A DNA stretch of 64,000 nucleotides from Treponema sp. (GTDB lineage Bacteria; Spirochaetota; Spirochaetia; Treponematales; Treponemataceae). The stretch spans positions 11,596 to 75,595 of the forward strand of contig JAZLGN010000039.1 in the NCBI GenBank assembly GCA_045616325.1. Direction: 5' to 3'. The notes beneath the pieces were generated by a model, which saw only the letters and a list, made by a program, of their open reading frames with translations, searched no databases and was not told the origin of the DNA. Within the stretch, counting starts at the first letter, position 1. Each line of letters begins with the position of its first letter. Made by a program: the position numbers and the translations under genes. Shown one piece after another: positions 2,509-41,794 of this stretch.

Positions 2509-4062
2509 TTAGTCCTCCACCTTGATTTCCTGGCGTTTTGCACCAGCCATGTAAAGTCCAAGTTCTTCCGGGGTCGTAGCCTTTGGGTCCAGTTCCCCAA
2601 CAATTTCTCCCTGGTGCATGACAAGAATCCTGTCGCTAAGGCTCATGACTTCATCAAGCTCGTATGAAACCAGAAGGACGGCCTTGCCCTGGTCGCGGTC
2701 TTCGATGATTGCCTTGTGCAGGTATTCAATGGCGCCAACATCAAGGCCGCGGGTAGGCTGGACGGCTATCAGAAGCTTGTGGCTTTTGTTAAGTTCGCGG
2801 GCTGCGATGGCCTTCTGCTGGTTTCCACCAGACATGGCGCGGCAAACTGTTTTCCCGCCCTGTCCGCTTCGCACGTCGTACTTTTCAATGAGTTCCTCGC
2901 CGTACTTTGAAACTTCCCCAGACTTGATGAAAAACTTATTCTGGAATTTGTCTTCCCAATATCGCTGCAGAACAAGATTCTGATCAAGAGTGTAGTCAAG
3001 AACAAGACCATGCTTGTGCCTGTCTTCCGGAATGTGGCTCATGCCTGCCATGGATTTTTCACGGATCAAATTTTTAGTTATATCAACTCCATCAAGAAGA
3101 ATCGATGTCCGTTTGTCCGTAAACACAAGTGGAGATAGTCCCGTAAGTCCCGAAATGAATTCCGACTGCCCGTTGCCGTCAATTCCTGCGATGCATACGA
3201 TTTCCCCGGCGCGGACCTTCATGCTCACGTCCTTTACTCCAAGGGAATCGTGCATGCGGCTCTTTACATTCATGTGATTGATTTCAAGAATCGTCTTGCC
3301 AGGAACGGCTGGCCTTTTGTCAACCACAAACTGAACGTCACGGCCGACCATCATCCTGCTTAGTTCTTCTTTTGTTGTGCCCTTGATGTCAACGGTTCCA
3401 ATGTACTTGCCCTTTCGCAAAACCGAGCATCTGCTGGCAACTGCCATGATTTCATTAAGCTTGTGGGTAATGAAGAGGATGGACTTTCCTTCGGCAGCAA
3501 GATTTTTCATGATCTGCATAAGTTCTTCTATTTCCTGGGGAGTCAGTACTGCAGTCGGCTCGTCAAAAATCAGGATTTCATTGTCGCGGTAAAGCATCTT
3601 CAGGATTTCAACGCGCTGCTGCATTCCCACAGTAAGGTCTTCAATCTTTGATTCAGGCGTAACAAAAAGCCCGTAGTGCTTGCTCAATTCCACGACTTTT
3701 TTGCATGCAGACTTTCGGTCAAGGAATGGTCCCTTAGTGGTTTCGCTTCCAAGAATGATGTTGTCCAGGACCGTGAAGTTTTCCACAAGCTTAAAGTGCT
3801 GGTGAACCATTCCAATGCCCAGTGCCGTGGCGTCATTTGGATTGCCAATGAGGACCTTCTTTCCGTTCTTCCGGATTTCACCTTCTTCCGGCTGGTAAAG
3901 GCCAAAGAGAACGCTCATGAGCGTAGATTTTCCGGCACCGTTTTCTCCAAGGAGGGCATGGATTTCTCCCTTGCGCAGCTGCAGCGTAATGCTGTCGTTG
4001 GCAATGATTCCAGGAAACCGTTTGGTAATGTTCAGCATTTCAATGATGTATTCTTCACTCAT
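2509..4062 (-). CDS. ABC transporter ATP-binding protein with two ABC domains (NupA/YufO-like)
   Basis: Walker A GENGAGKST, ILIFDEPT, second-domain signature MSGGNQQK and QPTRGLDVGA. Confidence 0.96.
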   Translation of the reverse strand: MSEEYIIEMLNITKRFPGIIANDSITLQLRKGEIHALLGENGAGKSTLMSVLFGLYQPEEGEIRKNGKKVLIGNPNDATALGIGMVHQHFKLVENFTVLDNIILGSETTKGPFLDRKSACKKVVELSKHYGLFVTPESKIEDLTVGMQQRVEILKMLYRDNEILIFDEPTAVLTPQEIEELMQIMKNLAAEGKSILFITHKLNEIMAVASRCSVLRKGKYIGTVDIKGTTKEELSRMMVGRDVQFVVDKRPAVPGKTILEINHMNVKSRMHDSLGVKDVSMKVRAGEIVCIAGIDGNGQSEFISGLTGLSPLVFTDKRTSILLDGVDITKNLIREKSMAGMSHIPEDRHKHGLVLDYTLDQNLVLQRYWEDKFQNKFFIKSGEVSKYGEELIEKYDVRSGQGGKTVCRAMSGGNQQKAIAARELNKSHKLLIAVQPTRGLDVGAIEYLHKAIIEDRDQGKAVLLVSYELDEVMSLSDRILVMHQGEIVGELDPKATTPEELGLYMAGAKRQEIKVED

Positions 4063-4297: not shown

Positions 4298-5413
4298 CTA
4301 TTTGATGTTAGGATACTTGTTAACCTTGATTGAAACTGCAGGATCCTTGTCGATGGCGTTAGAAACCTTTGTCTTTCCTGAGTATACGTCGGCAACCATC
4401 TTCTTGTAGTCTGAAACCTTAAAGTTCTTCATAGCCCAAGTCTCTGTTGGAAGGCCAACATAGTTTGCGTTGAGGTCTGTTCCAGACACGAGTCCGAGGG
4501 AAGAAACCTTGCCTGCGTAGTCAGCTGCAAATGATCCGTCCTGGATGGAAGCAAGACATGCATATACTGTTGCACCCAATCCCTTCATTGCAGAAGTTAC
4601 GTGCATTCCGGCTTCGTAGCTGTTGATCTGTGCCGTCTGGTCAACGTCAACACCGATAACCTTTCCGTGAACCTTGGCTGCTGCGTCGCATGCAGAAGTC
4701 CAGATTCCGCCGCCACATGCAAATACAACTTCAACACCGCGGTTCTTGTACCAACCGTCCATTGTTGCAGTGATTGTCTGGTCACCGTAGAACTGTCCGC
4801 CGTAAACGTATTCAACTGTAACCTGGTCTGCAATGTTAAGTTCCTCGGCTGCCTTGTTGGCTCCCTGAACAAAACCGTAGCCATAGCGGATAACGGCAGG
4901 AACAGCCATGCCGCCAAGGAATCCAAGGTGGCGGTATCCTTCCTTAACTGCTGCATAACCGGCAAAGTAGCCAGGAATTTCTTCAGCATAAACTGCGCAG
5001 AAAACGTTGGAAGGAAGCTTTGCTCCACCCAGGTCAAATTCGCTGATGTCAAGGCCGATGAACTTTGCGTCGTCATAGTCCTTTGCAACCTTTACGATTG
5101 CTTCACCAAAAAGGAATCCTGGAAGAACGATTACATTGTAACCGTCCTGGTATGCTGCGTCGATTGAAGCAACACGGTCTGCAGTAGAATCGCCTGCAGG
5201 CTTGTAGTACTGGAAGTCCAGCCTGTTTGCTTCTGCATAAGACTTGCATGCCTGGTAAGTTGTCTGGTTGAACGACTGGTCCGTAATGTCTCCAGAGTCG
5301 GTAACCATTGCAATCTTGATTGCAGGCTTCTTTTCAGCCTTCTTGGCCTTAGCTGCAAACACTGAAGTGCAAGCCAAGGCAGCCATCATTGCCACAAGAA
5401 TAATCTTTTTCAT
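4298..5413 (-). CDS. BMP-family (PnrA/TmpC-like) nucleoside ABC substrate-binding protein
   Basis: TDSGDITDQSFNQ, GFLGG, GGGIW and IGVDVDQ motifs; signal peptide ends VFA (SPase I-like, no clear lipobox). Confidence 0.93.
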   Translation of the reverse strand: MKKIILVAMMAALACTSVFAAKAKKAEKKPAIKIAMVTDSGDITDQSFNQTTYQACKSYAEANRLDFQYYKPAGDSTADRVASIDAAYQDGYNVIVLPGFLFGEAIVKVAKDYDDAKFIGLDISEFDLGGAKLPSNVFCAVYAEEIPGYFAGYAAVKEGYRHLGFLGGMAVPAVIRYGYGFVQGANKAAEELNIADQVTVEYVYGGQFYGDQTITATMDGWYKNRGVEVVFACGGGIWTSACDAAAKVHGKVIGVDVDQTAQINSYEAGMHVTSAMKGLGATVYACLASIQDGSFAADYAGKVSSLGLVSGTDLNANYVGLPTETWAMKNFKVSDYKKMVADVYSGKTKVSNAIDKDPAVSIKVNKYPNIK

Positions 5414-5439
5414 TTGTAATCCTCCATGAAAGATTCCTC

Positions 5440-5468
5440 ATTATAGAACATTATGGCATTGGTGGCAA
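5440..5468 (-). promoter_or_regulatory. Sigma70 promoter of the BMP gene
   Basis: TTGCCA-17-TATAAT on the minus strand; GGAGG SD before the ATG. Confidence 0.75.
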
Positions 5469-5553
5469 AGGCCAGTCCCCTGGATGACCCTCAAAAAGGC
5501 CATGGTTGGCCTAAAAAGCATGCAATTTTTTTCAGAAAAAATGTTTTTTTTGC

Positions 5554-5580
5554 TAAAGTCCAGTTTTCCAAGTCCGACAA
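5554..5580 (+). promoter_or_regulatory. Sigma28 (FliA) promoter of flaB
   Basis: TAAAGTCC-N11-TCCGACAA matches the consensus TAAAGTTT-N11-GCCGATAA. Confidence 0.85.
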
Positions 5581-5671
5581 TAAAAATATAGGGTGGTATA
5601 CCCAAGAAGGGGGAGCATGCCGGGTGAAAGCATGCTTGTAACTCTAGTACCTTGATCATAGGAGATAAATT

Positions 5672-6532
5672 ATGGTTATCAATCACAACATGAGTGCAAT
5701 GTTTGCACAGCGCGCAGGTGGAATCACTGAGCTCAACAATCAGAAGAACATGGAAAAGCTTTCTTCTGGTATGAAGATCAACCGCGCAGGTGACGATGCT
5801 TCAGGACTTGCAGTTTCTGAAAAGATGCGTGCACAGATTCGCGGTTTGAATCAGGCATCAACAAATGCAAAGAATGGTATTTCTTTCATCCAGACAACAG
5901 AAGGATACCTCCAGGAAACATCTGACATCGTTCAGCGCATCCGCGAACTTGCAGTACAGTCATCGAACGGTATCTACACAGACGAAGACCGCATGCAGAT
6001 CCAGGTTGAAGTATCTTCTCTCATCGCAGAAGTTGACCGCATCGCTTCAACAGCACAGTTCAACGGCATGAACATGCTTACAGGACGTTTCGCTCGCTCA
6101 ACAGGTGAAAACAGCGTAACAGCTTCTATGTGGCTCCACATTGGTGCAAACATGGACCAGAGAACACAGGTATACATTGGAACAATGTCTGCTGCAGCTC
6201 TTGGACTCCGCAATGTTGGAACAGAAGAAATCATGACTCTCGAATCTCCAGATGATGCAAACCGCGCAATTGGAACACTCGATGAAGCCCTCAAGAAGAT
6301 CAACAAGCAGCGTGCAGACCTTGGTGCATACCAGAACCGCCTCGAAAAGACAGTTGTAGGTCTTGATGTTGGTGCAGAAAACCTCCAGGCATCTGAATCA
6401 CGCATCCGCGATACAGACATGGCTAAGGAAATGGTTGACTTCACAAAGAACCAGGTTCTCTCTCAGGCTGGAACAGCTATGCTTGCTCAGGCAAACCAGT
6501 CTTCACAGAGCGTTCTTTCACTCCTCCAGTAG
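5672..6532 (+). CDS. flaB: Periplasmic flagellar filament core protein FlaB (flagellin)
   Basis: [35 protein letters not shown] and C-terminal [13 protein letters not shown]...LSLL; 286 aa, typical of spirochaete FlaB. Confidence 0.98.
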
Positions 6533-13967: not shown

Positions 13968-14651
13968 ATGAAACACGGAAAGAAGTACATGGAGTCGCTC
14001 AAGAAGTACGACCCATCTAAGGTTTATGGTGTTCCAGAAGCATGCCAGATTGTAAAGGACATTCACTTTGCAAAGTTTGATGAAACTGTAGAACTTTCAG
14101 TTACACTCAAGCTCGAAAAGAACCAGACTGTTCGTGATACACTCGTATTTCCACATCAGTTCACAGCTGAAAAGCGTGTTCTCGTATTCTGTAAGGAAGA
14201 CCGCGTAAAGGAAGCACTTGATGCAGGTGCAACATATGCAGGTTCAACAGAATATCTTGACAAGGTAAAGGGCGGCTGGCTCGACTTCGATGTTGCAGTT
14301 GCTACACCTGACATGATGAAGGACGTTGGTCGTCTTGGTATGGTACTTGGCCGCAAGGGTCTCATGCCAAACCCAAAGACAGGAACTGTTACACCTAACA
14401 TTGCAGAAGCAGTAGCTGAACTCAAGAAGGGTCGTACAGAATTCCGCGCTGACAAGACAGGTGTTGTTCACATTCCAGTTGGAAAGGTATCTATGGATGC
14501 TAAGGATACGGCTGAAAACGTAACAACATTCCTTGCTGAACTTAACCGCAAGAAGCCACAGGATGCTAAGGCAGGTTTCGTACGTTCAGTTTCCCTCAGT
14601 TCTTCTATGGGACCTGGCGTTTGGGTTGAATTCAAGGAGGATGCAGAATAA
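13968..14651 (+). CDS. rplA: 50S ribosomal protein L1
   Basis: AKFDETVE, DVAVATPDMM, LGRKGLMPNPKTGTVT. Confidence 0.99.
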   Translation: MKHGKKYMESLKKYDPSKVYGVPEACQIVKDIHFAKFDETVELSVTLKLEKNQTVRDTLVFPHQFTAEKRVLVFCKEDRVKEALDAGATYAGSTEYLDKVKGGWLDFDVAVATPDMMKDVGRLGMVLGRKGLMPNPKTGTVTPNIAEAVAELKKGRTEFRADKTGVVHIPVGKVSMDAKDTAENVTTFLAELNRKKPQDAKAGFVRSVSLSSSMGPGVWVEFKEDAE

Positions 14652-15232
14652 TGGCTATCATGGCAAAAAAACTCCAGCCAGCTAAGACAGCTGCTATCGA
14701 AGAAGCAAAGAAAGTTCTTGGTGAATACAACGACTTCATCTTCGTTGAATACCGTGGACTTACTGTTGAACAGATTACAAAGCTCCGCAAGTCACTCCGC
14801 GAAAAGAACGCATCTTTCAAGGTTATCAAGAATAACTTTGCCCGCGTTGCTTTCGATGAAATGAAGAATGACCAGGTTGCACAGTATCTTTCAGGACCAA
14901 CAGCTATTGCTATGATCAAGGAAGATGCAAACGAATCTGCAAAGATTCTCTTTGACTTCGCAAAAGATGCTCCTGCACTCGTAGTAAAGGGCGCATGGGT
15001 AGAAAACGAACTTTATGATGCTGCCAAGATCGAAGCTTTCTCAAAGCTCCCTGGAAAGAAGCAGCTCATCGCTATGCTTATGTCTGCTATCAATGGACCA
15101 GCACGCAAACTCGCAGGTACATTGCAGGCATACGTTGAAAAGTTGGAAAAGGAAGGTGGCGCAGCTCCAGCAGCTGAAGCAGCACCAGCTGAAACTCCAG
15201 CTCCAGCAGCAGAAGCACCTGCAGCTGAATAA
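14651..15232 (+). CDS. rplJ: 50S ribosomal protein L10 with Ala/Pro/Glu tail
   Basis: EYRGLTV, KVIKN, LSGPTA, SKLPGKKQL; overlaps the rplA stop (TAATG). Confidence 0.98.
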   Translation: MAIMAKKLQPAKTAAIEEAKKVLGEYNDFIFVEYRGLTVEQITKLRKSLREKNASFKVIKNNFARVAFDEMKNDQVAQYLSGPTAIAMIKEDANESAKILFDFAKDAPALVVKGAWVENELYDAAKIEAFSKLPGKKQLIAMLMSAINGPARKLAGTLQAYVEKLEKEGGAAPAAEAAPAETPAPAAEAPAAE

Positions 15233-19652: not shown

Positions 19653-22600
19653 TATCCAGGATTTTACAAGTCTTAAAATTAAGCTTGCCTCACCAGAAAA
19701 CATCCGTTCATGGTCTTATGGCGAAGTAAAAAAGCCGGAAACAATCAACTATCGTACTCTTCGTCCGGAGAGGGACGGTCTTTTCTGTGAACGTATTTTC
19801 GGTACAACAAAGGAATGGGAATGTTACTGCGGTAAGTTCAAGAGCATCCGTTACAAGGGTGTTGTCTGTGACCGCTGTGGTGTTGAAGTTACTCATTTCA
19901 AGGTTCGCCGTGAACGCACCGGTCACATTGATCTTGCAGCTCCGGTAAGCCACATCTGGTACTATCACTCGGTTCCAAGCCGCATGGGTCTTCTTCTTGA
20001 CCTTCCGGTGGCAGCATTGCGTTCAATTCTCTACTATGAAAAGTACATCGTAATTGATCCTCAGGAAACTGACCTCAAGAAGAACCAGCTTCTTACGGAA
20101 GATGAATTCAACGAGGCACAGGAACGCTTCTCCGGTTCATTTACTGCAGGAATGGGTGCAGAAGCAATCAAGGCACTTCTTGAAAACATTGACCTTGATG
20201 CTCTTTCTGCAGAACTCCGTGCAAGGATGATTGAAAAGGGATCAAAGAGCGACAAGCGCCTCCTCAAGAGAATCGAAATCGTTGAAAATTTCCGTTCTTC
20301 AGGAAACAAGGCATCATGGATGGTTCTCGATGTAATTCCTGTAATTCCACCGGATCTTCGTCCAATGGTTCAGCTTGATGGTGGAAGATTTGCCACATCT
20401 GACCTTAATGACCTTTACCGCCGCGTTATCAACAGAAACAACCGTCTCAAGAAGCTTCAGAGCCTTTCAGCTCCGGACATTATTATCCGCAACGAAAAGC
20501 GCATGCTTCAGGAAGCCGTGGATTCACTCTTTGATAACTCAAAGCGCAAGCAGAAGGTTCTCAAGGGACAGGCAAACCGTCCTCTCAAGTCTATTTCCGA
20601 CATGCTCAAGGGTAAGCAGGGTCGTTTCCGCCAGAACCTCCTTGGTAAGCGCGTTGACTATTCAGGCCGTTCGGTAATCGTTGTTGGTCCGGAACTCAAG
20701 CTCTGGCAGTGTGGTCTTCCAGAAAAGATGGCCCTCGAACTCTTCAAGCCTTTCATCATGAAGAAGCTTGTTGACAAGGGAATCGTATTCAACATTAAGA
20801 AGGCAAGAACTCTCGTTGAACAGGAATCAACGGAAGTTTTCAATATCCTTGATGAAGTTGTTCGCGAGCATCCGGTTATGCTTAACCGTGCCCCTACTCT
20901 TCACCGCCTCGGTATCCAGGCTTTTGAACCTGTACTTGTTCCAGGAAAGGCCCTCAAGCTTCATCCTCTTGCATGTAAGGCTTTCAATGCCGACTTCGAC
21001 GGTGACCAGATGGCCATTCACGTGCCTCTTACTCAGGCAGCCCAGATGGAATGCTGGACATTGATGCTTTCTGCACGCAACCTTCTTGACCCTGCTAACG
21101 GTAACACAATCGTTGCTCCTTCACAGGACATGGTTCTCGGTATCTATTACATGACATCGATTAAGCCAAATGCAAAGGGTACGGGAAAATTCTTCTCTTC
21201 TGCAGATGAAGTTCGTCTCGCAGCCTCAAGCGGAGCAATCGAATGGCAGGCAGAAATCAAGGTTCACAAGAACATCGTAAACAAGTGCGTTAACGGTGAC
21301 AAGGATCCGGAAGAAAAGTACCTCCTTACATCCGCAGGCCGTCTTGCTTTCAACGAAGCAATGCCTGATGAAGTAGACTTCTATAATGAACAGCTTGGTG
21401 ACAAGGGTCTCAAGAAGATGATCGAGCGTGTTTACCACAACGACCAGACTTCAGACAAGAGAATCAAGGCTCTTATCGAAGAAAAGTATCAGGTTACACA
21501 GCTTGATGCAGAAACCCTCGACAAGATTATGGAAGATTCTTCTGTAAAGGCTCAGATTAACAAGATTTTCAACAGGGAAACACCTATTGAAGATTACAAG
21601 CTCAGGAAGATTCTCCCTGGCCTTTATGCAATCGACCGCGGCTGGCTTACAATCCAGATGCTCGATGCCATCAAGGCTACAGGTTACAAGAATGCTACAT
21701 TCTACGGTGCAACCCTTTCCATGGATGATATTCTCGTTCCGGAAGAAAAGAAGGAAATGGTTGCAGAAGCAAATGCTGAAGTAGAAAAGATCGTAAAGCA
21801 GAACAAAGCCGGTATCATTTCCGATGATGAACGCTATAACAGGTCCGTTGGTGTTTGGGAAAAGACAAATGAAAAGCTTACGGAACTCATGTACGAAAAG
21901 ATGGGAAAGGATAAGGATGGCTTTAACACCATCTATATGATGGCCATCTCTGGTGCCCGCGGTAGTAAGAAGCAGATTTCTCAGCTTGCCGCCATGCGTG
22001 GTCTTATGCAGAAGCCTAACGGTGCCATCATTGAACTTCCTATTCGTGCAAACTTTAAGGAAGGTCTTTCGGTTATCGAATACTTCATCTCAACAAACGG
22101 TGCACGTAAGGGTCTTTCAGATACAGCCCTTAAGACAGCCGACGCAGGTTACATGACACGCCGTCTTGTAGATGTTGCACAGGATGTTGTAGTTAATGAA
22201 GAAGACTGCGGTACAATCAACGGTATTGACTACAGGGCAATCAAGGAAGGTGATGAAGTTAAGGTTCCTCTTGCAAAGAGAATTGCAGGACACTATCCAA
22301 TTGAACGCGTCATCGACCCAGTTTCTGGTGAACTCCTCTGTGACGTTAACCAGTACATCGACGAAGCCCTTGCAGAAAAGATTGACAAGGCTGGTGTAGA
22401 AAAGGTTAAGCTCCGCACAGTTCTTACCTGTGAAAGCAAGCATGGTATCTGCGTAAAGTGTTACGGTAAGGACCTTGCACGCAACAAGATCGTAGAAATT
22501 GGTGAAGCAGTGGGAACCATTGCAGCCCAGTCAATCGGTCAGCCTGGTACACAGCTTACACTCCGTACATTCCATACTGGTGGTGCTGCTGAATCAAGCC

Positions 22601-32639: not shown

Positions 32640-32963
32640 ATGGAAAAGAAATACAGAATCCGTAGAGATGACAATGTTGAAGTTCTTGCTGGAAAGGACA
32701 AGGGAAAGCGTGGAACAATCGTTCGTGTATTCGAAAAGAATGGCAAGGGACGTGTAATTGTTTCTGGCTGCAACCTTGTAAAGAAGGCAATTAAGAGAAA
32801 GTCACAGCAGGATGCAGGCGGAATCGCTGAAGTAGAAGCACCTCTTGATATTTCGAATGTAGGGATCGTATGTAAAAAGTGCGGTCGTCCAGTAAGAATT
32901 GGAATTAAACTTGACGGTGACAAGAAAGTTCGCGTTTGCCGCAAGTGTGGAGAAACACTGTAA
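32640..32963 (+). CDS. rplX: 50S ribosomal protein L24 (with C-terminal CxxC-CxxC)
   Basis: KOW motif [21 protein letters not shown]...CRKC. Confidence 0.99.
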
Positions 32964-33524: not shown

Positions 33525-33710
33525 ATGGCTAAGAAATCAATGATTATCAAAGCAAACCGTACACCTAAGTACAGCACACGCCGTTACAACAGATGTAAGA
33601 TTTGTGGTCGTCCACACGGATATTTGCGCAAGTTCAAGATTTGTCGTATCTGCTTCCGCAAATTGGCAAGTGAAGGCCTTCTTCCAGGCGTCACAAAATC
33701 ATCTTGGTAG
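33525..33710 (+). CDS. rpsN: 30S ribosomal protein S14 type Z (Zn-binding)
   Basis: [10 protein letters not shown]...ICRICFR...GVTKSSW; 61 aa. Confidence 0.99.
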
Positions 33711-36274: not shown

Positions 36275-37609
36275 ATGGCAAACAATCCAGTTGTAAATAT
36301 GTTCAAGGTAAAGGATTTGCGTTCAAAGCTTCTTTTTACGTTGCTCATTCTCGCTGTAGTTCGCTTCGGAAGTATTCTCACAATTCCGGGGATCAATGCC
36401 ACTTTACTTCTGCAGTACTTTGACAGTTTGGCTAGTGGTGCAGAAAGTGCGTTTGCCAGTTACATGGACTTTTTTGCGGGTGGAGCCTTTGAAAGATTCT
36501 CTGTATTCATGCTTGGTGTAATGCCATACATCTCAACACAGATTATCCTTCAGCTCGCCCTTGTTATCTTCCCGTCTTTGAAAAGAGTTGCTCAGGAAGA
36601 TGGAGGACAGCAGAAAATTCAGAGTTGGACAAGGGTTGGTACAATTTTTGTTTGTATCTTCCAGTCTATCGCTCTTACAGTTTATGCTTCCTCTATCAAC
36701 CAGCAGGTTCCGGGTGCGATAATCTTTGAAAATAAAGTCTATTTTAATCTTCTTGCCATCCTTACAGTAACAACAGGTTCCATGATTACTGTTTGGCTCG
36801 GTGACCAGATTACTGCTCACGGTATTGGACAGGGTATCTCAATGATCATCTTTGCCGGTATCGTCGCACGTCTTCCAAGTGCAGTATATGAATTGGTTAA
36901 AAGCGTTCAGAACGGAGACATCAACGTTGTATTCGTTGTTGTTGCATTGTTCCTGTTCCTTGTAATCATCGGTCTTGTTGTTTTTGAACAGTCTGGTGTT
37001 CGCAAGATTTCTGTACACTATGCAAAGCGCGTTGTAGGACGCAAAATGTATGGCGGACAGAGTACATACATTCCGTTCAAGATCAATCCGTCGGGAGTTA
37101 TTCCTATCATCTTTGCTTCAGCATTCCTTACATTCCCGCTCCAGATTGCAAACAGCCTTTCAACCAAGGCAACATGGTTAAGCAAGGTTGCTACCATTTT
37201 GAACCCACTTGGTTTTTGGTATAATTTCATTGAAGTTTTGTTGATTATTTTCTTTGCATACTTCTACACACAGGTAACCCTGAACCCCATTGAGATTGCA
37301 AAAAATATCCGTGAAAACGGCGGTTCCATTCCTGGAATCAGAACTGACAAAACTGAGGAATATCTTCAGAAGGTTTTGAACCGTCTGATCCTTCCTGGTT
37401 CATTGTATCTTGCAGCAATTGCTCTGCTGCCTACAATCATTCAGATTCTTTTCAAGTTCCCTGCATCAATTTCTATGTTGATGGGTGGTACTTCGCTCTT
37501 GATTCTGGTTGGTGTTGACATTGACACAATGTCTCAGGTTGAAGCTCTTCTTAAGATGCACCATCACGATGGTCTTACAAAGAAGGGATTAAAAACACGT
37601 GGTCTCTAA
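36275..37609 (+). CDS. secY: Preprotein translocase subunit SecY
   Basis: LGVMPYIS, WLGDQIT..GIGQG.S, IPFKINPSGVIPIIFA, GGSIPGIR, GGTSLLI. Confidence 0.99.
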   Translation: MANNPVVNMFKVKDLRSKLLFTLLILAVVRFGSILTIPGINATLLLQYFDSLASGAESAFASYMDFFAGGAFERFSVFMLGVMPYISTQIILQLALVIFPSLKRVAQEDGGQQKIQSWTRVGTIFVCIFQSIALTVYASSINQQVPGAIIFENKVYFNLLAILTVTTGSMITVWLGDQITAHGIGQGISMIIFAGIVARLPSAVYELVKSVQNGDINVVFVVVALFLFLVIIGLVVFEQSGVRKISVHYAKRVVGRKMYGGQSTYIPFKINPSGVIPIIFASAFLTFPLQIANSLSTKATWLSKVATILNPLGFWYNFIEVLLIIFFAYFYTQVTLNPIEIAKNIRENGGSIPGIRTDKTEEYLQKVLNRLILPGSLYLAAIALLPTIIQILFKFPASISMLMGGTSLLILVGVDIDTMSQVEALLKMHHHDGLTKKGLKTRGL

Positions 37610-37767
37610 AAGAGATTTCATGTTTGGACTAGATTAAATATTGAGAATTTGTTATAGTATTGCACCGTTGTTTTTTAACAGCGGTGTTGTCAGATTGTAA
37701 TTCATGGTGATAGTTTCACTTCGAATTGCCATGATCTGACAGTAACATGTTTTCCAAGGGGACTTTT

Positions 37768-37881
37768 ATGAAAGTACGAACTAGCGTAAAGCCCATCTGC
37801 GACAAATGTAAGGTAATCAAGAGAAACGGCATTGTCCGCATTATCTGTGAAAACCCAAAGCACAAGCAGAGACAGGGTTGA
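37768..37881 (+). CDS. rpmJ: 50S ribosomal protein L36 (Zn-binding)
   Basis: Translated by hand: [37 protein letters not shown]; too short for the ORF track. Confidence 0.98.
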
Positions 37882-37891
37882 GGAGTAACTG

Positions 37892-38260
37892 ATGGCACGT
37901 ATTGCAGGAGTTGATCTCCCGAACAAGCATGTCAATATTGCATTGACATATGTATATGGAATTGGCCGCTCATCAGCAAACAAGATTTGTGAAGCTACAA
38001 AGGTAAATCCTGATGTTCTTTTGAACGAACTTTCAGAAGACGATCTTAACAAGCTCCGCAAGTACATTGATGAAAACTTTAAGACTGAAGGACGTCTCCG
38101 TTCAGAAATCGGTCTTAATATCAAGCGCCTTATGGATATCGGTAGCTACCGTGGTCTTCGCCACCGCAAGGGACTTCCTTGCCGTGGACAGCGTACACGC
38201 ACTAATTCTCGCACACGCAAGGGTAAGAAGAAGACCGTTGCTAACAAGAAGAAGGCATAA
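37892..38260 (+). CDS. rpsM: 30S ribosomal protein S13
   Basis: [31 protein letters not shown]. Confidence 0.99.
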
Positions 38261-38274
38261 GCGGGGGTTAATCG

Positions 38275-38661
38275 ATGGCAGTAACAACAAGTAAGAAGAG
38301 AAAAGAAAAAAAGAGTGTATTTGAAGGAAATGTCTACATTCAGGCAACTTTCAATAACACTATTGTTACAATCACTGATCTTAGAGGAAACGCAATTTCT
38401 TGGGCTTCTTCTGGTGGTCTTGGATTCCGCGGAGCAAAGAAATCTACTCCATTTGCAGCACAGTCTGTAGCAGAAACTGCAGTACAGCGCGCAGCAAGCT
38501 ATGGTCTTCGTGAAGTACACGTATTCGTAAAGGGACCTGGAATGGGACGTGAAAACGCCATCCGTATCCTTGGTACTCTTGGATTGAAGGTAAAGTCAAT
38601 TTCTGATGTTACACCAATTCCACACAACGGATGCCGCCCACGCAAGACACGCCGTATGTAG
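38275..38661 (+). CDS. rpsK: 30S ribosomal protein S11
   Basis: [29 protein letters not shown]. Confidence 0.99.
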
Positions 38662-38753
38662 TTTGAAAGCCGGCAGATTCTGCTGGTTTTGATTAACAGA
38701 AAAGCCCGGATAGCTGCATGTCATCTTTCCGGGTAACAATTAAGGAGTTCAGA

Positions 38754-39800
38754 TTGGCTCGCAAAAATCTGCTTAAGGGTTTTAAACAACCAAAGGGAAT
38801 TACATTTGAACACATCGAAAACAATCCGAATTACGGAAAGTTTACAGCATTTCCTTTTGAACCTGGATTTGGTACAACGGTAGGTAACACACTTCGCCGC
38901 GTACTCCTTTCTTCGATTCAAGGTTATGCCATTTCTTCAGTTCGTATTAGCTCATACGATGCTGATGGTGTTCCACATGTTATTTCCAGTGAATTTGAAA
39001 CAATCCCGAATATCTCTGAAGATACTCTGGAAGTTTTGAACAGCTTGAAACAGATTCGCTTGCGTCTGCCGCGGGATGTTGAACAGGACAGTTTCACTTT
39101 CGAATTTAAGGGACCTGGAACTGTAAAAAGTGACGATCTTGCAAAAGAAGGTCAGCTTGAAATCATGACTAAGGGTCTTGAGATCTTTACAATGATGGAA
39201 GGTGCTCATCTGGAAATCGAATTCCAGGTTGACCTTGGAAGAGGATACGTTTCTGCAGATGTAAATGAACACTACATTGAAATTGTTGGTACAATTGCAA
39301 TGGACTGTATCTTTACTCCTGTACCAAAGGTTAAATATTCTATTGAACCTTGTCGCGTAGGTCAGCGCAATGATTATGACAAATTGATTCTTGAGATTTG
39401 GACGGACGGTTCCATCACTCCGGAAGATGCTCTTGCTGAAGCAGCAAAAATTGCAAAGGATTATTTTGCAATCTTCGTTAACTTCAATGAAAGCGATTAT
39501 CCTACGACAGTAGGACCGGATGAAGGCGACGAAAAAGTTAAGGAATTCCTTAAGCGTCCAGTTGAAGAACTTGAACTTACAGTTCGCAGTTCTAACTGTC
39601 TTAAGAATGCAAACATTAAGAATATCGGTGAATTGACAAGAAAGACCGAAGATGAACTTACAAAAACAAGAAACTTCGGTAAAAAGAGCCTTGAAGAAAT
39701 CAAGACAAAACTTGCAGATCTTGGCTTGGCACTTGGCATGACTGATTTTAGTCACTTAAAAGACGTTTATTTAGGTAAACAGAAGGACACAGAAGAATGA
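38754..39800 (+). CDS. rpoA: RNA polymerase alpha subunit
   Basis: [48 protein letters not shown]; TTG start after the AAGGAG SD. Confidence 0.98.
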
Positions 39801-40195
39801 ACCACAAAACTGGATTTAATCCGCTTTCACGTACAACAGCACACCGCCGTGCAATGTCACGCAACATGGTAACTTCTCTCTTCAGATATGAAAGAATTAC
39901 TACAACAGAACCAAAGGCTAAAGAAGTACGTAAAGCTGCAGAAAAATTGATTACACGTGCAAAGGTTGACAGTGTACACAACAGAAGAATTGCTGCAAAG
40001 TACATTTCTGATAACAAGATTCTGAAGAAGCTTTTCGAAGAAATCGGCCCTCGCATGAAGGATCGCAATGGCGGTTATACTCGCATTCTCAAGATGGGAT
40101 TCCGTCAGGGTGATGCAGCAGAAACTGTTATTTTCGAATTGGTAGACTACAAGTTACCAGAAGCTGAAGATTCAACTGAATCTAAAAAGGCTTAA
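39797..40195 (+). CDS. rplQ: 50S ribosomal protein L17
   Basis: [31 protein letters not shown]. Confidence 0.99.
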
Positions 40196-40211
40196 GCAAA
40201 AGGAGTAGGCA

Positions 40212-40454
40212 ATGTCAAAAGCACATCGTGGAACTGGAATCCGTAAGGAAGCAAATCATGGACGTGGGACATGTCCAGTATGCAATAAGTCTGGCGTAAA
40301 GGTACTTTACGATCAGGAAGTAGACGGAAAGAAAGTAAAGATTTGCAAGGTTTGTAAAGCTGCTCTTAAGAACAAGGCACAGAAAGATGCAAGACTTGCT
40401 AAGAAGGCCGCTGCAGCTGAAGCACCAGCAGCAGAAGCACCAGCAGAAGCATAA
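40212..40454 (+). CDS. Small basic Zn-ribbon protein, last gene of the r-protein operon (candidate ribosomal protein)
   Basis: AAGGAG SD, 16 nt after the rplQ stop; CPVC-20-CKVC; 18 K/R vs 5 D/E in aa 1-65; followed by the operon terminator. Confidence 0.85.
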   Translation: MSKAHRGTGIRKEANHGRGTCPVCNKSGVKVLYDQEVDGKKVKICKVCKAALKNKAQKDARLAKKAAAAEAPAAEAPAEA

Positions 40455-40476
40455 GATTATATCTTAGCTATGCTCA

Positions 40477-40510
40477 AGCCGCTCTTTGTATAAGGGCGGC
40501 TGTATTTTTT
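40477..40510 (+). terminator. Terminator of the S10-spc-alpha transcription unit
   Basis: AGCCGCTCTT-TGTAT-AAGGGCGGCT followed by GTATTTTTT. Confidence 0.8.
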
Positions 40511-40657
40511 TAAATTCATTGTGAAAGAGCCGGAATGTGAATTTGTAATTAAAGGCAATAGGTGTGGTTCGTGAGCATAAAATGCCATGGGATTTCTTTA
40601 CACTTATGTTAATTTTTATTAAAATGTCGGCAAAACAGTAATTAATAGGAGAATACT

Positions 40658-41794
40658 ATGAAATTTTCAAGAGTATTTACTTCAGGAGTTATGGCTCTTG
40701 CTGCAGCCCTTTCATTTGCTGCAGCTCCAAAGGGAGTTAAGATTGGTGGTGTAGCACCTCTTTCTGGCGCTGTAGCTGTATACGGTGCAGAATGCAAGAA
40801 GGGTATTGATCTTGCTGTAGAAGAAATCAACGCAGCAGGCGGTGTTCTTGGCCAGCAGATTACATTCGTATGTGAAGATGATGAAGGTGATGCAGCAAAG
40901 TCTGTTAATGCATTCACAAAGCTCTGCACAAGGGACAGGGTTCGCATCGTTGTTGGTTCACTTACATCTGGATGTACACTTGCAATTACCCAGCAGGCTC
41001 AGGCAAGAAAGGTTCTTCAGATTGCACCTGCTGCAACAGCTGTAAACATCACTGATGCAGGTAACTATATTTTCAGAACTTGTTTCATTGACCCATTCCA
41101 GGGACGCGTTGGCGGTAAGTTTGCTGCTGCAAACCTTGGATGCAAGAATGCTGCAATTCTCTATGACATTGGAAACGACTATTCAGCAGGCCTTGCAGAA
41201 AACTTTGAAAATGAATTCAAGGCCCAGGGTGGAACAATCGTTTCAAAGCAGTCTTACGGAACTGGAGACAAGGACTTTAACGCACAGCTTACAAAAATCA
41301 AGGCTGCCAACCCGGATGTAGTATACCTTCCAGATTACTACGGAACAGTTGCCCTTATTGCAAAGCAGCTTCGTGCACAGGGAATCAACACACCAATCAT
41401 CGGTGCTGATGGATGGGACGGACTTACGGAAAATGCAGGTGATGAAGTTCTTAACGGATACTATTCAAACCACTATGCAGAAGATTCAACAAGCCCAGCC
41501 GTACAGAAGTTTGTTAAGTCTTTCAAGGCAAAGTACAACAAGGCTCCTAATTCATTTGCAGCCCTCGGTTATGACTCAATTTACATGATCAAGGATGCAA
41601 TGGAAAAGGCAGGAACTACAACTGATGTTGTTAAGATTCGCGATGCTTATGAAAAGACAAACGGTGACTACGTAACAGGTCACATCGTGTTTGATGCAAA
41701 GCGCAACCCAATCAAGTCTGCAGTTATGATCAAGCTTGTAAAGGATGGAAGCAAGCTTTCTACAGCATACGCAGCTACAGTTGATATCCGCTAA
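40658..41794 (+). CDS. livJ: Branched-chain amino acid ABC substrate-binding protein (LivJ/LivK family)
   Basis: PLSGAVAVYG, EEINAAGGVLG, EDDEGD, NYIFRTCFID, DFNAQLTKIK, ALGYD. Confidence 0.93.
   Translation: MKFSRVFTSGVMALAAALSFAAAPKGVKIGGVAPLSGAVAVYGAECKKGIDLAVEEINAAGGVLGQQITFVCEDDEGDAAKSVNAFTKLCTRDRVRIVVGSLTSGCTLAITQQAQARKVLQIAPAATAVNITDAGNYIFRTCFIDPFQGRVGGKFAAANLGCKNAAILYDIGNDYSAGLAENFENEFKAQGGTIVSKQSYGTGDKDFNAQLTKIKAANPDVVYLPDYYGTVALIAKQLRAQGINTPIIGADGWDGLTENAGDEVLNGYYSNHYAEDSTSPAVQKFVKSFKAKYNKAPNSFAALGYDSIYMIKDAMEKAGTTTDVVKIRDAYEKTNGDYVTGHIVFDAKRNPIKSAVMIKLVKDGSKLSTAYAATVDIR

Follow-up and report, generated by a model that had tools for sequence, protein, structure and literature searches.

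Which protein is encoded by the short open reading frame (ORF) that closes a treponemal ribosomal protein operon, and does that protein work on the ribosome? The question arises from a 64,000-nucleotide stretch of Treponema sp. DNA (assembly GCA_045616325.1, contig JAZLGN010000039.1; hereafter the window), in which the ORF at 40212-40454 on the forward strand, directly downstream of rplQ, encodes 80 amino acids (aa) plus a stop codon (MSKAHRGTGIRKEANHGRGTCPVCNKSGVKVLYDQEVDGKKVKICKVCKAALKNKAQKDARLAKKAAAAEAPAAEAPAEA), with its ATG at 40212 and its TAA at 40452-40454. A first-pass annotation, made from the sequence alone, had proposed an unrecognised ribosomal or ribosome-associated protein of the spirochaete lineage. 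We find that the ORF is a real gene under purifying selection and that it encodes a TP_0214-family protein, the orthologue of TP0214 of Treponema pallidum; the gene and its family are already catalogued, without a function. We consider the TP_0214 protein a candidate ribosome-associated protein, either structural or tightly bound, and give this reading roughly even odds (about 0.5).

The family is therefore not unrecognised, as the first-pass annotation had supposed: it is the Pfam family PF27208, named 'TP_0214' and without assigned function, and publications have described it as an uncharacterised miniprotein. Membership rests on a precomputed PF27208.1 match on the database protein identical to the ORF; the same match is present on all 120 matches listed. 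A search of 5.8 billion proteins returned 426 homologues at E <= 0.01, essentially all of 70-90 aa and called, where named, 'hypothetical protein [Treponema sp.]'. The published Tp0214 sequence (supplement of PMC9200625; 65 aa, WP_010881662.1, locus tag also TPANIC_0214) is letter for letter the ORF after rplQ in a genome of the window's family that is assembled as one contig of 1,139,633 bp. The window protein is 57% identical to TP0214 over 58 aa, and both are encoded in the order rpoA-rplQ-ORF. They share the motif MSKAHRGxGIR...GRG, the hairpin GVK(V/L)LY..E.DGKKVK and the position after rplQ; TP0214 differs in its length of 65 aa, in the loss of three of the four cysteines (CPVTGQ...VSKVG) and in having no Ala/Glu/Pro tail. 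We take TDE0793 of T. denticola to be the same gene, from its listing directly after TDE0791 (rpoA) and TDE0792 (rplQ). Two much longer proteins, of 4048 aa and 1614 aa, each match the query in 7 stretches (E 3e-11 and 7e-9); they probably contain repeated modules that are zinc-ribbon-like or of low complexity.

The position of the gene is defined by the following features of the window:

39797..40195, + strand: rplQ (bL17), directly upstream (Pfam Ribosomal_L17, E 3.5e-39; coordinates from the ORF list)
40200..40205, + strand: Shine-Dalgarno sequence AAGGAG, 6 nt before the ATG (direct sequence reading)
40212..40454, + strand: TP_0214-family gene, orthologue of T. pallidum TP0214 and, as taken here, of T. 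denticola TDE0793 (ORF; PF27208 match; synteny; dN/dS 0.12)
40477..40511, + strand: intrinsic terminator ending the operon, with a 10-bp stem and a 5-nt loop, then GTATTTTTTT (terminator scan; folding energy)

The genes before the ORF are secY, rpmJ, rpsM, rpsK, rpoA and rplQ, each confirmed with Pfam, and the S10 and spc genes precede secY (as read from the ORF list). The rplQ ATG overlaps the rpoA stop codon by 4 nt, and a 16-nt gap separates the end of rplQ (40195) from the TP_0214 ORF. The G+C-rich terminator stem (40477-40501; -17.3 kcal/mol, z -2.7) begins 23 nt past the ORF stop and is the sole forward-strand terminator-like site within 37600-40900. Since the first terminator comes only past its stop codon, the TP_0214 ORF lies inside the ribosomal protein transcription unit. 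One metatranscriptome contig, from a relative of ~92% identity, covers 39881-40444 without interruption, starting within rplQ and continuing through the ORF. Most such contigs derive from relatives of 90-95% identity, and DNA may be among them, so that they lend weak support to co-transcription. An Rfam scan found no structured RNA around the gene.

The gene also reads like its neighbours. We trained a codon log-ratio score on the 28 translation genes of the window (27 ribosomal protein genes plus tuf), which themselves score 0.173 +/- 0.082 when left out one at a time, versus -0.33 +/- 0.19 for 1488 long background ORFs. The TP_0214 ORF scores 0.146, a value reached by 1.9% of the background. 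Among 13 orthologues, the ratio of nonsynonymous to synonymous substitution rates (dN/dS) over residues 1-53 is ~0.12, compared with 0.06 for rplQ, with dS near saturation. The first-pass annotation had thus described the setting correctly in its strong Shine-Dalgarno sequence, its 16-nt distance from rplQ, its place inside the operon terminator and its ribosomal-protein-like codon style, and rightly held that the ORF is none of the standard S10, spc or alpha products. The similar genes after rplQ in other treponemes that it had mentioned are also confirmed: the order rpoA-rplQ-ORF is found at 13 of 13 loci from the window's order, one of these copies being identical to TP0214.

The gene is widespread in the class and single-copy. 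Within the window's order, 40 of 41 genomes carry it, among them all 30 of high quality; across the class, a profile built from 64 diverse members finds exactly one copy in each of 122 out of 151 genomes, which represent 76 of 90 genera. The reduced 1.14-Mb genome has kept the gene. A genome from the window's genus encodes the protein twice, at 70-71% identity to the query and on two contigs (positions 5825-6052 and 22281-22508); this could be a duplication or mixed strains in a metagenome-assembled genome with 2% contamination. The rest of the phylum has sporadic members only. Outside the spirochaetes, where the taxonomic range rests on the source names of database entries, shorter members of ~50-60 aa, made up of just the tail and the ribbon, are found in Clostridia (Cellulosilyticaceae, Defluviitaleaceae, Vallitalea, Clostridium zeae and Dethiothermospora), in Longirhabdus, a Paenibacillus relative, and in Cloacimonadota. 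Of the proposed spirochaete-lineage ribosomal protein, then, a conserved basic zinc-ribbon protein encoded in a ribosomal protein operon stands, confinement to spirochaetes does not, and we carry the ribosomal part forward as a proposal.

Some of the neighbours outside the spirochaetes belong to translation or ribosome assembly. At two different Cloacimonadota loci (locus positions 5001-6019 and 3001-4031), TP_0214 lies 59-86 nt upstream of ksgA (RrnaAD) with differing upstream neighbours, so that TP_0214-ksgA looks like a conserved gene pair in that group. On a Defluviitaleaceae contig the gene follows the glycyl-tRNA synthetase gene (glyS) by 68 nt, and in a Cellulosilyticaceae genome it lies three genes after dbpA. 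The neighbours at the C. zeae, Vallitalea and Longirhabdus loci give no functional hint.

The protein itself divides into four parts:

40212..40271, + strand: N-terminal basic tail, residues 1-20 (MSKAHRGTGIRKEANHGRGT) (alignment of 64 diverse members)
40272..40355, + strand: four-Cys zinc-binding core, with a C21-x2-C24 knuckle, a beta-hairpin at 29-45 and C45-x2-C48 at the helix start (AlphaFold2 model; hhalign to the uL24 ribbon)
40347..40418, + strand: predicted basic helix, residues 46-69 (KVCKAALKNKAQKDARLAKKAAAA) (AlphaFold2 model)
40407..40451, + strand: low-complexity acidic Ala/Glu/Pro tail, residues 66-80 (alignment; charge count)

Across the 64 members M1, R6, G7 and K46 are invariant, conservation reaches 90% or more at K3, R18, G19, C21 and K30, and the N-terminal motif common to the family is MSKxHRGxG...GRG. 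The computed net charge is +13 for residues 1-65, as the first-pass annotation had estimated, and -3 for the tail (66-80), whose length varies among homologues, many having none. The likeness of this tail to that of uL10 is borne out by the ORF at 14651-15232, a putative uL10 by its N-terminal sequence, which ends in a long low-complexity Ala/Glu/Pro stretch (…AAPAAEAAPAETPAPAAEAPAAE). A confident AlphaFold2 model built on the 64-member alignment (mean predicted local distance difference test score 82.9) has strands at 29-37 and 40-45 and a helix at 46-69; a short structured tail precedes a hairpin between the two Cys pairs, and the helix begins at the second pair. We read the modelled core as a treble-clef-like zinc ribbon.

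Nine of the 64 aligned members, TP0214 included, keep at most one of the four cysteines. These Cys-poor members retain the hairpin sequence GVKLLYE..(I/V)DGK..K(V/I)SK; because the hairpin outlasts its ligands, zinc appears to be structural and dispensable. Such an alternation of cysteine-containing (C+) and cysteine-less (C-) forms, in work of 2001 attributed to Makarova and colleagues, is said to be typical of zinc-ribbon ribosomal proteins. Recurrent loss of the Cys ligands is what the TP_0214 family has in common with the ribosomal proteins that have C+ and C- forms (bL31, bL33, bL36, uS14, bS18 and the uL24 type). The resemblance is one of behaviour and not of membership, and no Pfam model of the bL31, bL33, bL36, uS14, bS18 or uL24-type families matches the ORF.

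The closest sequence relative that we found is the C-terminal zinc ribbon of uL24. The first-pass annotation had compared the core with the ribbon of this operon's own uL24, and the string that it quoted is indeed present in the uL24 ORF (32640-32963), which matches the TP_0214 ORF at E 8e-4 in a pairwise comparison. When the ORF is compared with other spirochaete genomes, its best match is the uL24 gene in at least two of them. Thermus uL24 (4v7p and others) reaches E 0.5 in a search of PDB sequences. Aligned with hhalign to 18 spirochaete uL24 sequences, both Cys-containing and Cys-less, the 64-member family alignment gives a probability of 90-92% (P 5e-7) over 35-36 columns, with residues 15-52 placed on uL24 72-107; controls with reversed sequences give P 0.08-0.18, and with either alignment reversed P is 0.13-0.18. 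Cys-less subsets compared with each other still align, in a register that is similar and overlapping (P 0.0025). The shared pattern is CPxC-x(3)-[VR]-x(6-8)-[DN]GKK[VI][KR][VI]C-xx-C, and the uL24 ribbon (PF17136), like TP_0214, occurs in Cys-containing and Cys-less forms. From these sequence comparisons, distant homology of the two ribbons is probable, and the TP_0214 module is probably related by descent to the uL24 C-terminal ribbon.

TP_0214 is nonetheless not uL24. Unlike uL24, it lacks a KOW domain (no PF00467 match in the 80-aa ORF), has its own invariant N-terminal tail and carries a C-terminal helix that uL24 does not have; it scores 14.1 bits against a PF17136 cut-off of 27, and the genome has a complete uL24. 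A split-off or replacement ribbon can also be set aside: the uL24 of the window still has a complete four-Cys ribbon of its own, so TP_0214 is an extra protein rather than a piece of a split uL24. Some homologues carry the automatic JGI name 'ribosome-binding protein aMBF1'. Archaeal MBF1 (TIGR00270) matches the ORF at E 0.03 over profile positions 1-51, and its N-terminal ribbon resembles the ORF in having four cysteines at similar spacing, whereas the ORF consists of the ribbon only and lacks the helix-turn-helix domain; with 14.1 bits against a cut-off of 110, we regard the name as an annotation artefact. Pfam and NCBIfam searches otherwise gave only sub-threshold zinc-finger matches.

Taken together, co-transcription with ribosomal protein genes in one order, the codon usage, the near-universal single copy, the survival of the gene in a minimal genome, the strong constraint on its basic residues, the alternation of C+ and C- forms, the uL24-like ribbon and the ksgA and glyS neighbours are properties expected of a small rRNA-binding translation protein. 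In Treponematales, TP_0214 is the terminal cistron of the S10-spc-alpha transcription unit, and its own strong ribosome-binding site there implies a protein made with the ribosomal proteins and probably in similar amounts. Zinc, or the hairpin alone in Cys-less members, would hold a small RNA-binding module, which together with the basic tail would bind rRNA; the protein would then be either an accessory ribosomal protein of certain lineages or a factor for ribosome assembly or maintenance that binds tightly. The more specific proposal, that TP_0214 is a stoichiometric ribosomal protein descended from the uL24 ribbon, free-standing and with an rRNA-penetrating tail, in most Spirochaetia including the syphilis agent, in scattered Clostridia and in Cloacimonadota, we put forward tentatively and hold to be rather doubtful.

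Precedents for such a protein are bL38 of Bacteroidia, bS22 and bL37 of Actinobacteria and bTHX of Thermus, which like TP_0214 are small, very basic, phylum-confined and encoded with ribosomal protein genes (bL38 downstream of bL28 and bL33; PMC11851116). Unlike TP_0214, which is known from genes and sequence and has no similarity to them, these proteins were seen in cryo-EM maps of ribosomes.

Published expression data from T. pallidum and T. denticola touch on the same point. TP0214 ranked 1 of 557 by normalized spectral abundance factor (NSAF) in a T. pallidum proteome whose top-50 table also lists ribosomal proteins such as L34 (Osbak 2016). TPANIC_0214 (310 vs 830) is among the genes with more mRNA in culture, beside rpsO, rpsS and rpmC (De Lay et al. 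2021), and TDE0793 changes 2.22-fold where rpoA changes 2.40-fold and rplQ 2.20-fold (Sarkar et al. 2014).

Other evidence weighs against a place on the ribosome. Whole families of the class lack the gene, including one with genomes of 1.0-1.8 Mb that is presumed from this size to be Borrelia-like (0 of 9 sampled), so a spirochaete ribosome can do without the protein, and the patchy range outside spirochaetes would be unusual for a core ribosomal protein. Synteny with rplQ, complete in the window's order, fails beyond it: the gene is co-transcribed with ribosomal protein genes in Treponematales, but the 22 loci examined elsewhere in the class, all from other families, show no rplQ linkage (0 of 22) and no such co-transcription, and their recurrent neighbours (Mur ligase, PNP_UDP_1 nucleoside phosphorylase, M48 peptidase, an OmpA-domain protein and PGA_cap) have nothing to do with translation. 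The first-pass annotation had named lack of this synteny among the observations that would refute it; the lack is confined to relatives beyond the window's order, and none of the named observations refutes the proposal outright. The uL24 signal leans on the Cys columns, as C+ subsets compared with C- subsets give P of only 0.14, and PF17136 is third among the weak matches of the ORF (E 0.059, 14.1 bits vs 27). A relative among ribosomal proteins of known structure, for which the first-pass annotation had suggested looking, did not emerge: neither the single sequence nor the profile found a homologue among 177,635 distinct PDB sequences, and a Foldseek search of the PDB with the AlphaFold2 model gave nothing below E 0.6. 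The weak best matches are generic protein- or DNA-binding zinc domains (the ClpX/ClpG zinc-binding domain, HVO_2753 and Lsr2), and at E >= 0.6 the comparison of folds leaves the protein without a name. In the literature, the one spirochaete 70S structure that we found is that of Borrelia burgdorferi; since the genome group presumed to be its own lacks the gene, absence from the PDB says nothing. We found no ribosome-fraction proteomics of any gene-carrying species in the literature. In a deeper T. pallidum proteome TP0214 was not highly abundant (Houston 2023), and NSAF is noisy for a 7-kDa K/R-rich protein. Finally, TP_0214 does not appear to replace a missing non-universal ribosomal protein: in the one comparison made, with bS21, there was no complementary loss, bS21 being present in 150 of 151 genomes of the class.

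Much of this evidence can be read in other ways. TP_0214 could be an abundant general nucleic-acid binder (an RNA chaperone, a nucleoid-associated protein or a small RNA polymerase-associated subunit) whose site behind rpoA-rplQ just gives high constitutive expression, a possibility that we judge somewhat unlikely. Basic charge and a zinc ribbon fit such a binder too, the gene is two genes downstream of rpoA, and absence from whole lineages is easier for an accessory protein; outside Treponematales the gene stands alone among unrelated neighbours, one Vallitalea locus adjoining topoisomerase and MGMT-type DNA-binding genes, and the generic zinc domains among the weak Foldseek matches point the same way. 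Set against this, Pfam and NCBIfam yield no DNA-binding family, the closest relative by profile comparison is part of a ribosomal protein, the gene is co-regulated with ribosomal protein genes, and the ksgA and glyS neighbours point to translation. Another alternative is a factor that visits the ribosome transiently. uL24 nucleates 50S folding and KsgA is a late 30S assembly methyltransferase; TP_0214 could act in assembly, as an rRNA-helix chaperone like uL24 or beside KsgA on the 30S subunit, or could attach to idle ribosomes, serving in hibernation or protection. The conserved pair with ksgA in Cloacimonadota, the dbpA neighbourhood, a patchy range with dispensability in some lineages and an abundance that differs between proteome studies under different conditions all suit a transient factor, whereas constitutive co-transcription and ribosomal-protein-like codon usage better fit a stoichiometric component, and the protein resembles no known family of hibernation or assembly factors. 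We think this role improbable.

The cysteines admit a further reading, in which TP_0214 is a zinc buffer or storage miniprotein, or else a regulator of the alpha operon. Four Cys ligands, high expression and an operon without rpsD would suit one or the other. Cys-less orthologues, TP0214 among them, keep all the other conserved residues, so zinc binding is not the conserved function, and a regulator finds no leader-like RNA target (Alpha_RBS reaches only 20.9 bits vs 38); we regard both variants as very unlikely. Still harder to credit is a secreted or released antimicrobial peptide. Seven of eight antimicrobial peptide predictors called Tp0214 such a peptide on size and charge (Houston et al. 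2022, PMC9200625), yet predictors of this kind score any short cationic sequence high, ribosomal proteins included. The protein has no signal peptide or export context, its gene sits in a ribosomal protein operon, and in free-living and host-associated spirochaetes alike it is near-universal, present in one copy and strongly constrained by purifying selection.

If the TP_0214 protein is ribosome-bound, it would add a lineage-restricted member to the inventory of bacterial ribosomal proteins, as bL38, bS22 and bL37 did, and would give a function to a conserved protein of T. pallidum and of oral and gut treponemes that topped one T. pallidum proteome. It would also bear on the interpretation of ribosome-targeting drugs in treponemes and on the spread of ribosomal protein zinc-ribbon modules. 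Should it prove not to be ribosomal, there is still a spirochaete miniprotein, near-universal and highly constrained, to be explained. Searching the literature for TP_0214, we found no ribosomal hypothesis, no link to the uL24 ribbon, no class-wide single-copy range and no Cloacimonadota ksgA pairing.

Several further observations concern the rest of the operon and its surroundings. The order rpsM-rpsK-rpoA-rplQ lacks rpsD (uS4) between rpsK and rpoA (38661-38718). uS4 is the usual autoregulator of the alpha operon; with no rpsD at this site, it must be encoded elsewhere. A sub-threshold Rfam Alpha_RBS match lies at the rpmJ/rpsM junction (37870-37924, + strand), with E 0.074 and 20.9 bits where the gathering score is 38. 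The mechanically called rpmJ ORF (37747-37881) encodes 44 aa, and its Ribosomal_L36 match begins at residue 8; translation probably begins at the ATG at 37768 instead (MKVRTSVK...). Cys pairs typical of zinc-binding (C+) forms are present in the window's uL24 (32640-32963), uS14 (33525-33710) and bL36 (37768-37881), as in the TP_0214 protein. Past the terminator, a promoter-like site (40597-40625) precedes an unrelated operon for a branched-chain amino-acid ATP-binding cassette transporter. Its periplasmic binding protein gene (Peripla_BP_6, 40658-41794) has a codon score of 0.145, as high as that of ribosomal protein genes, and is probably very highly expressed.

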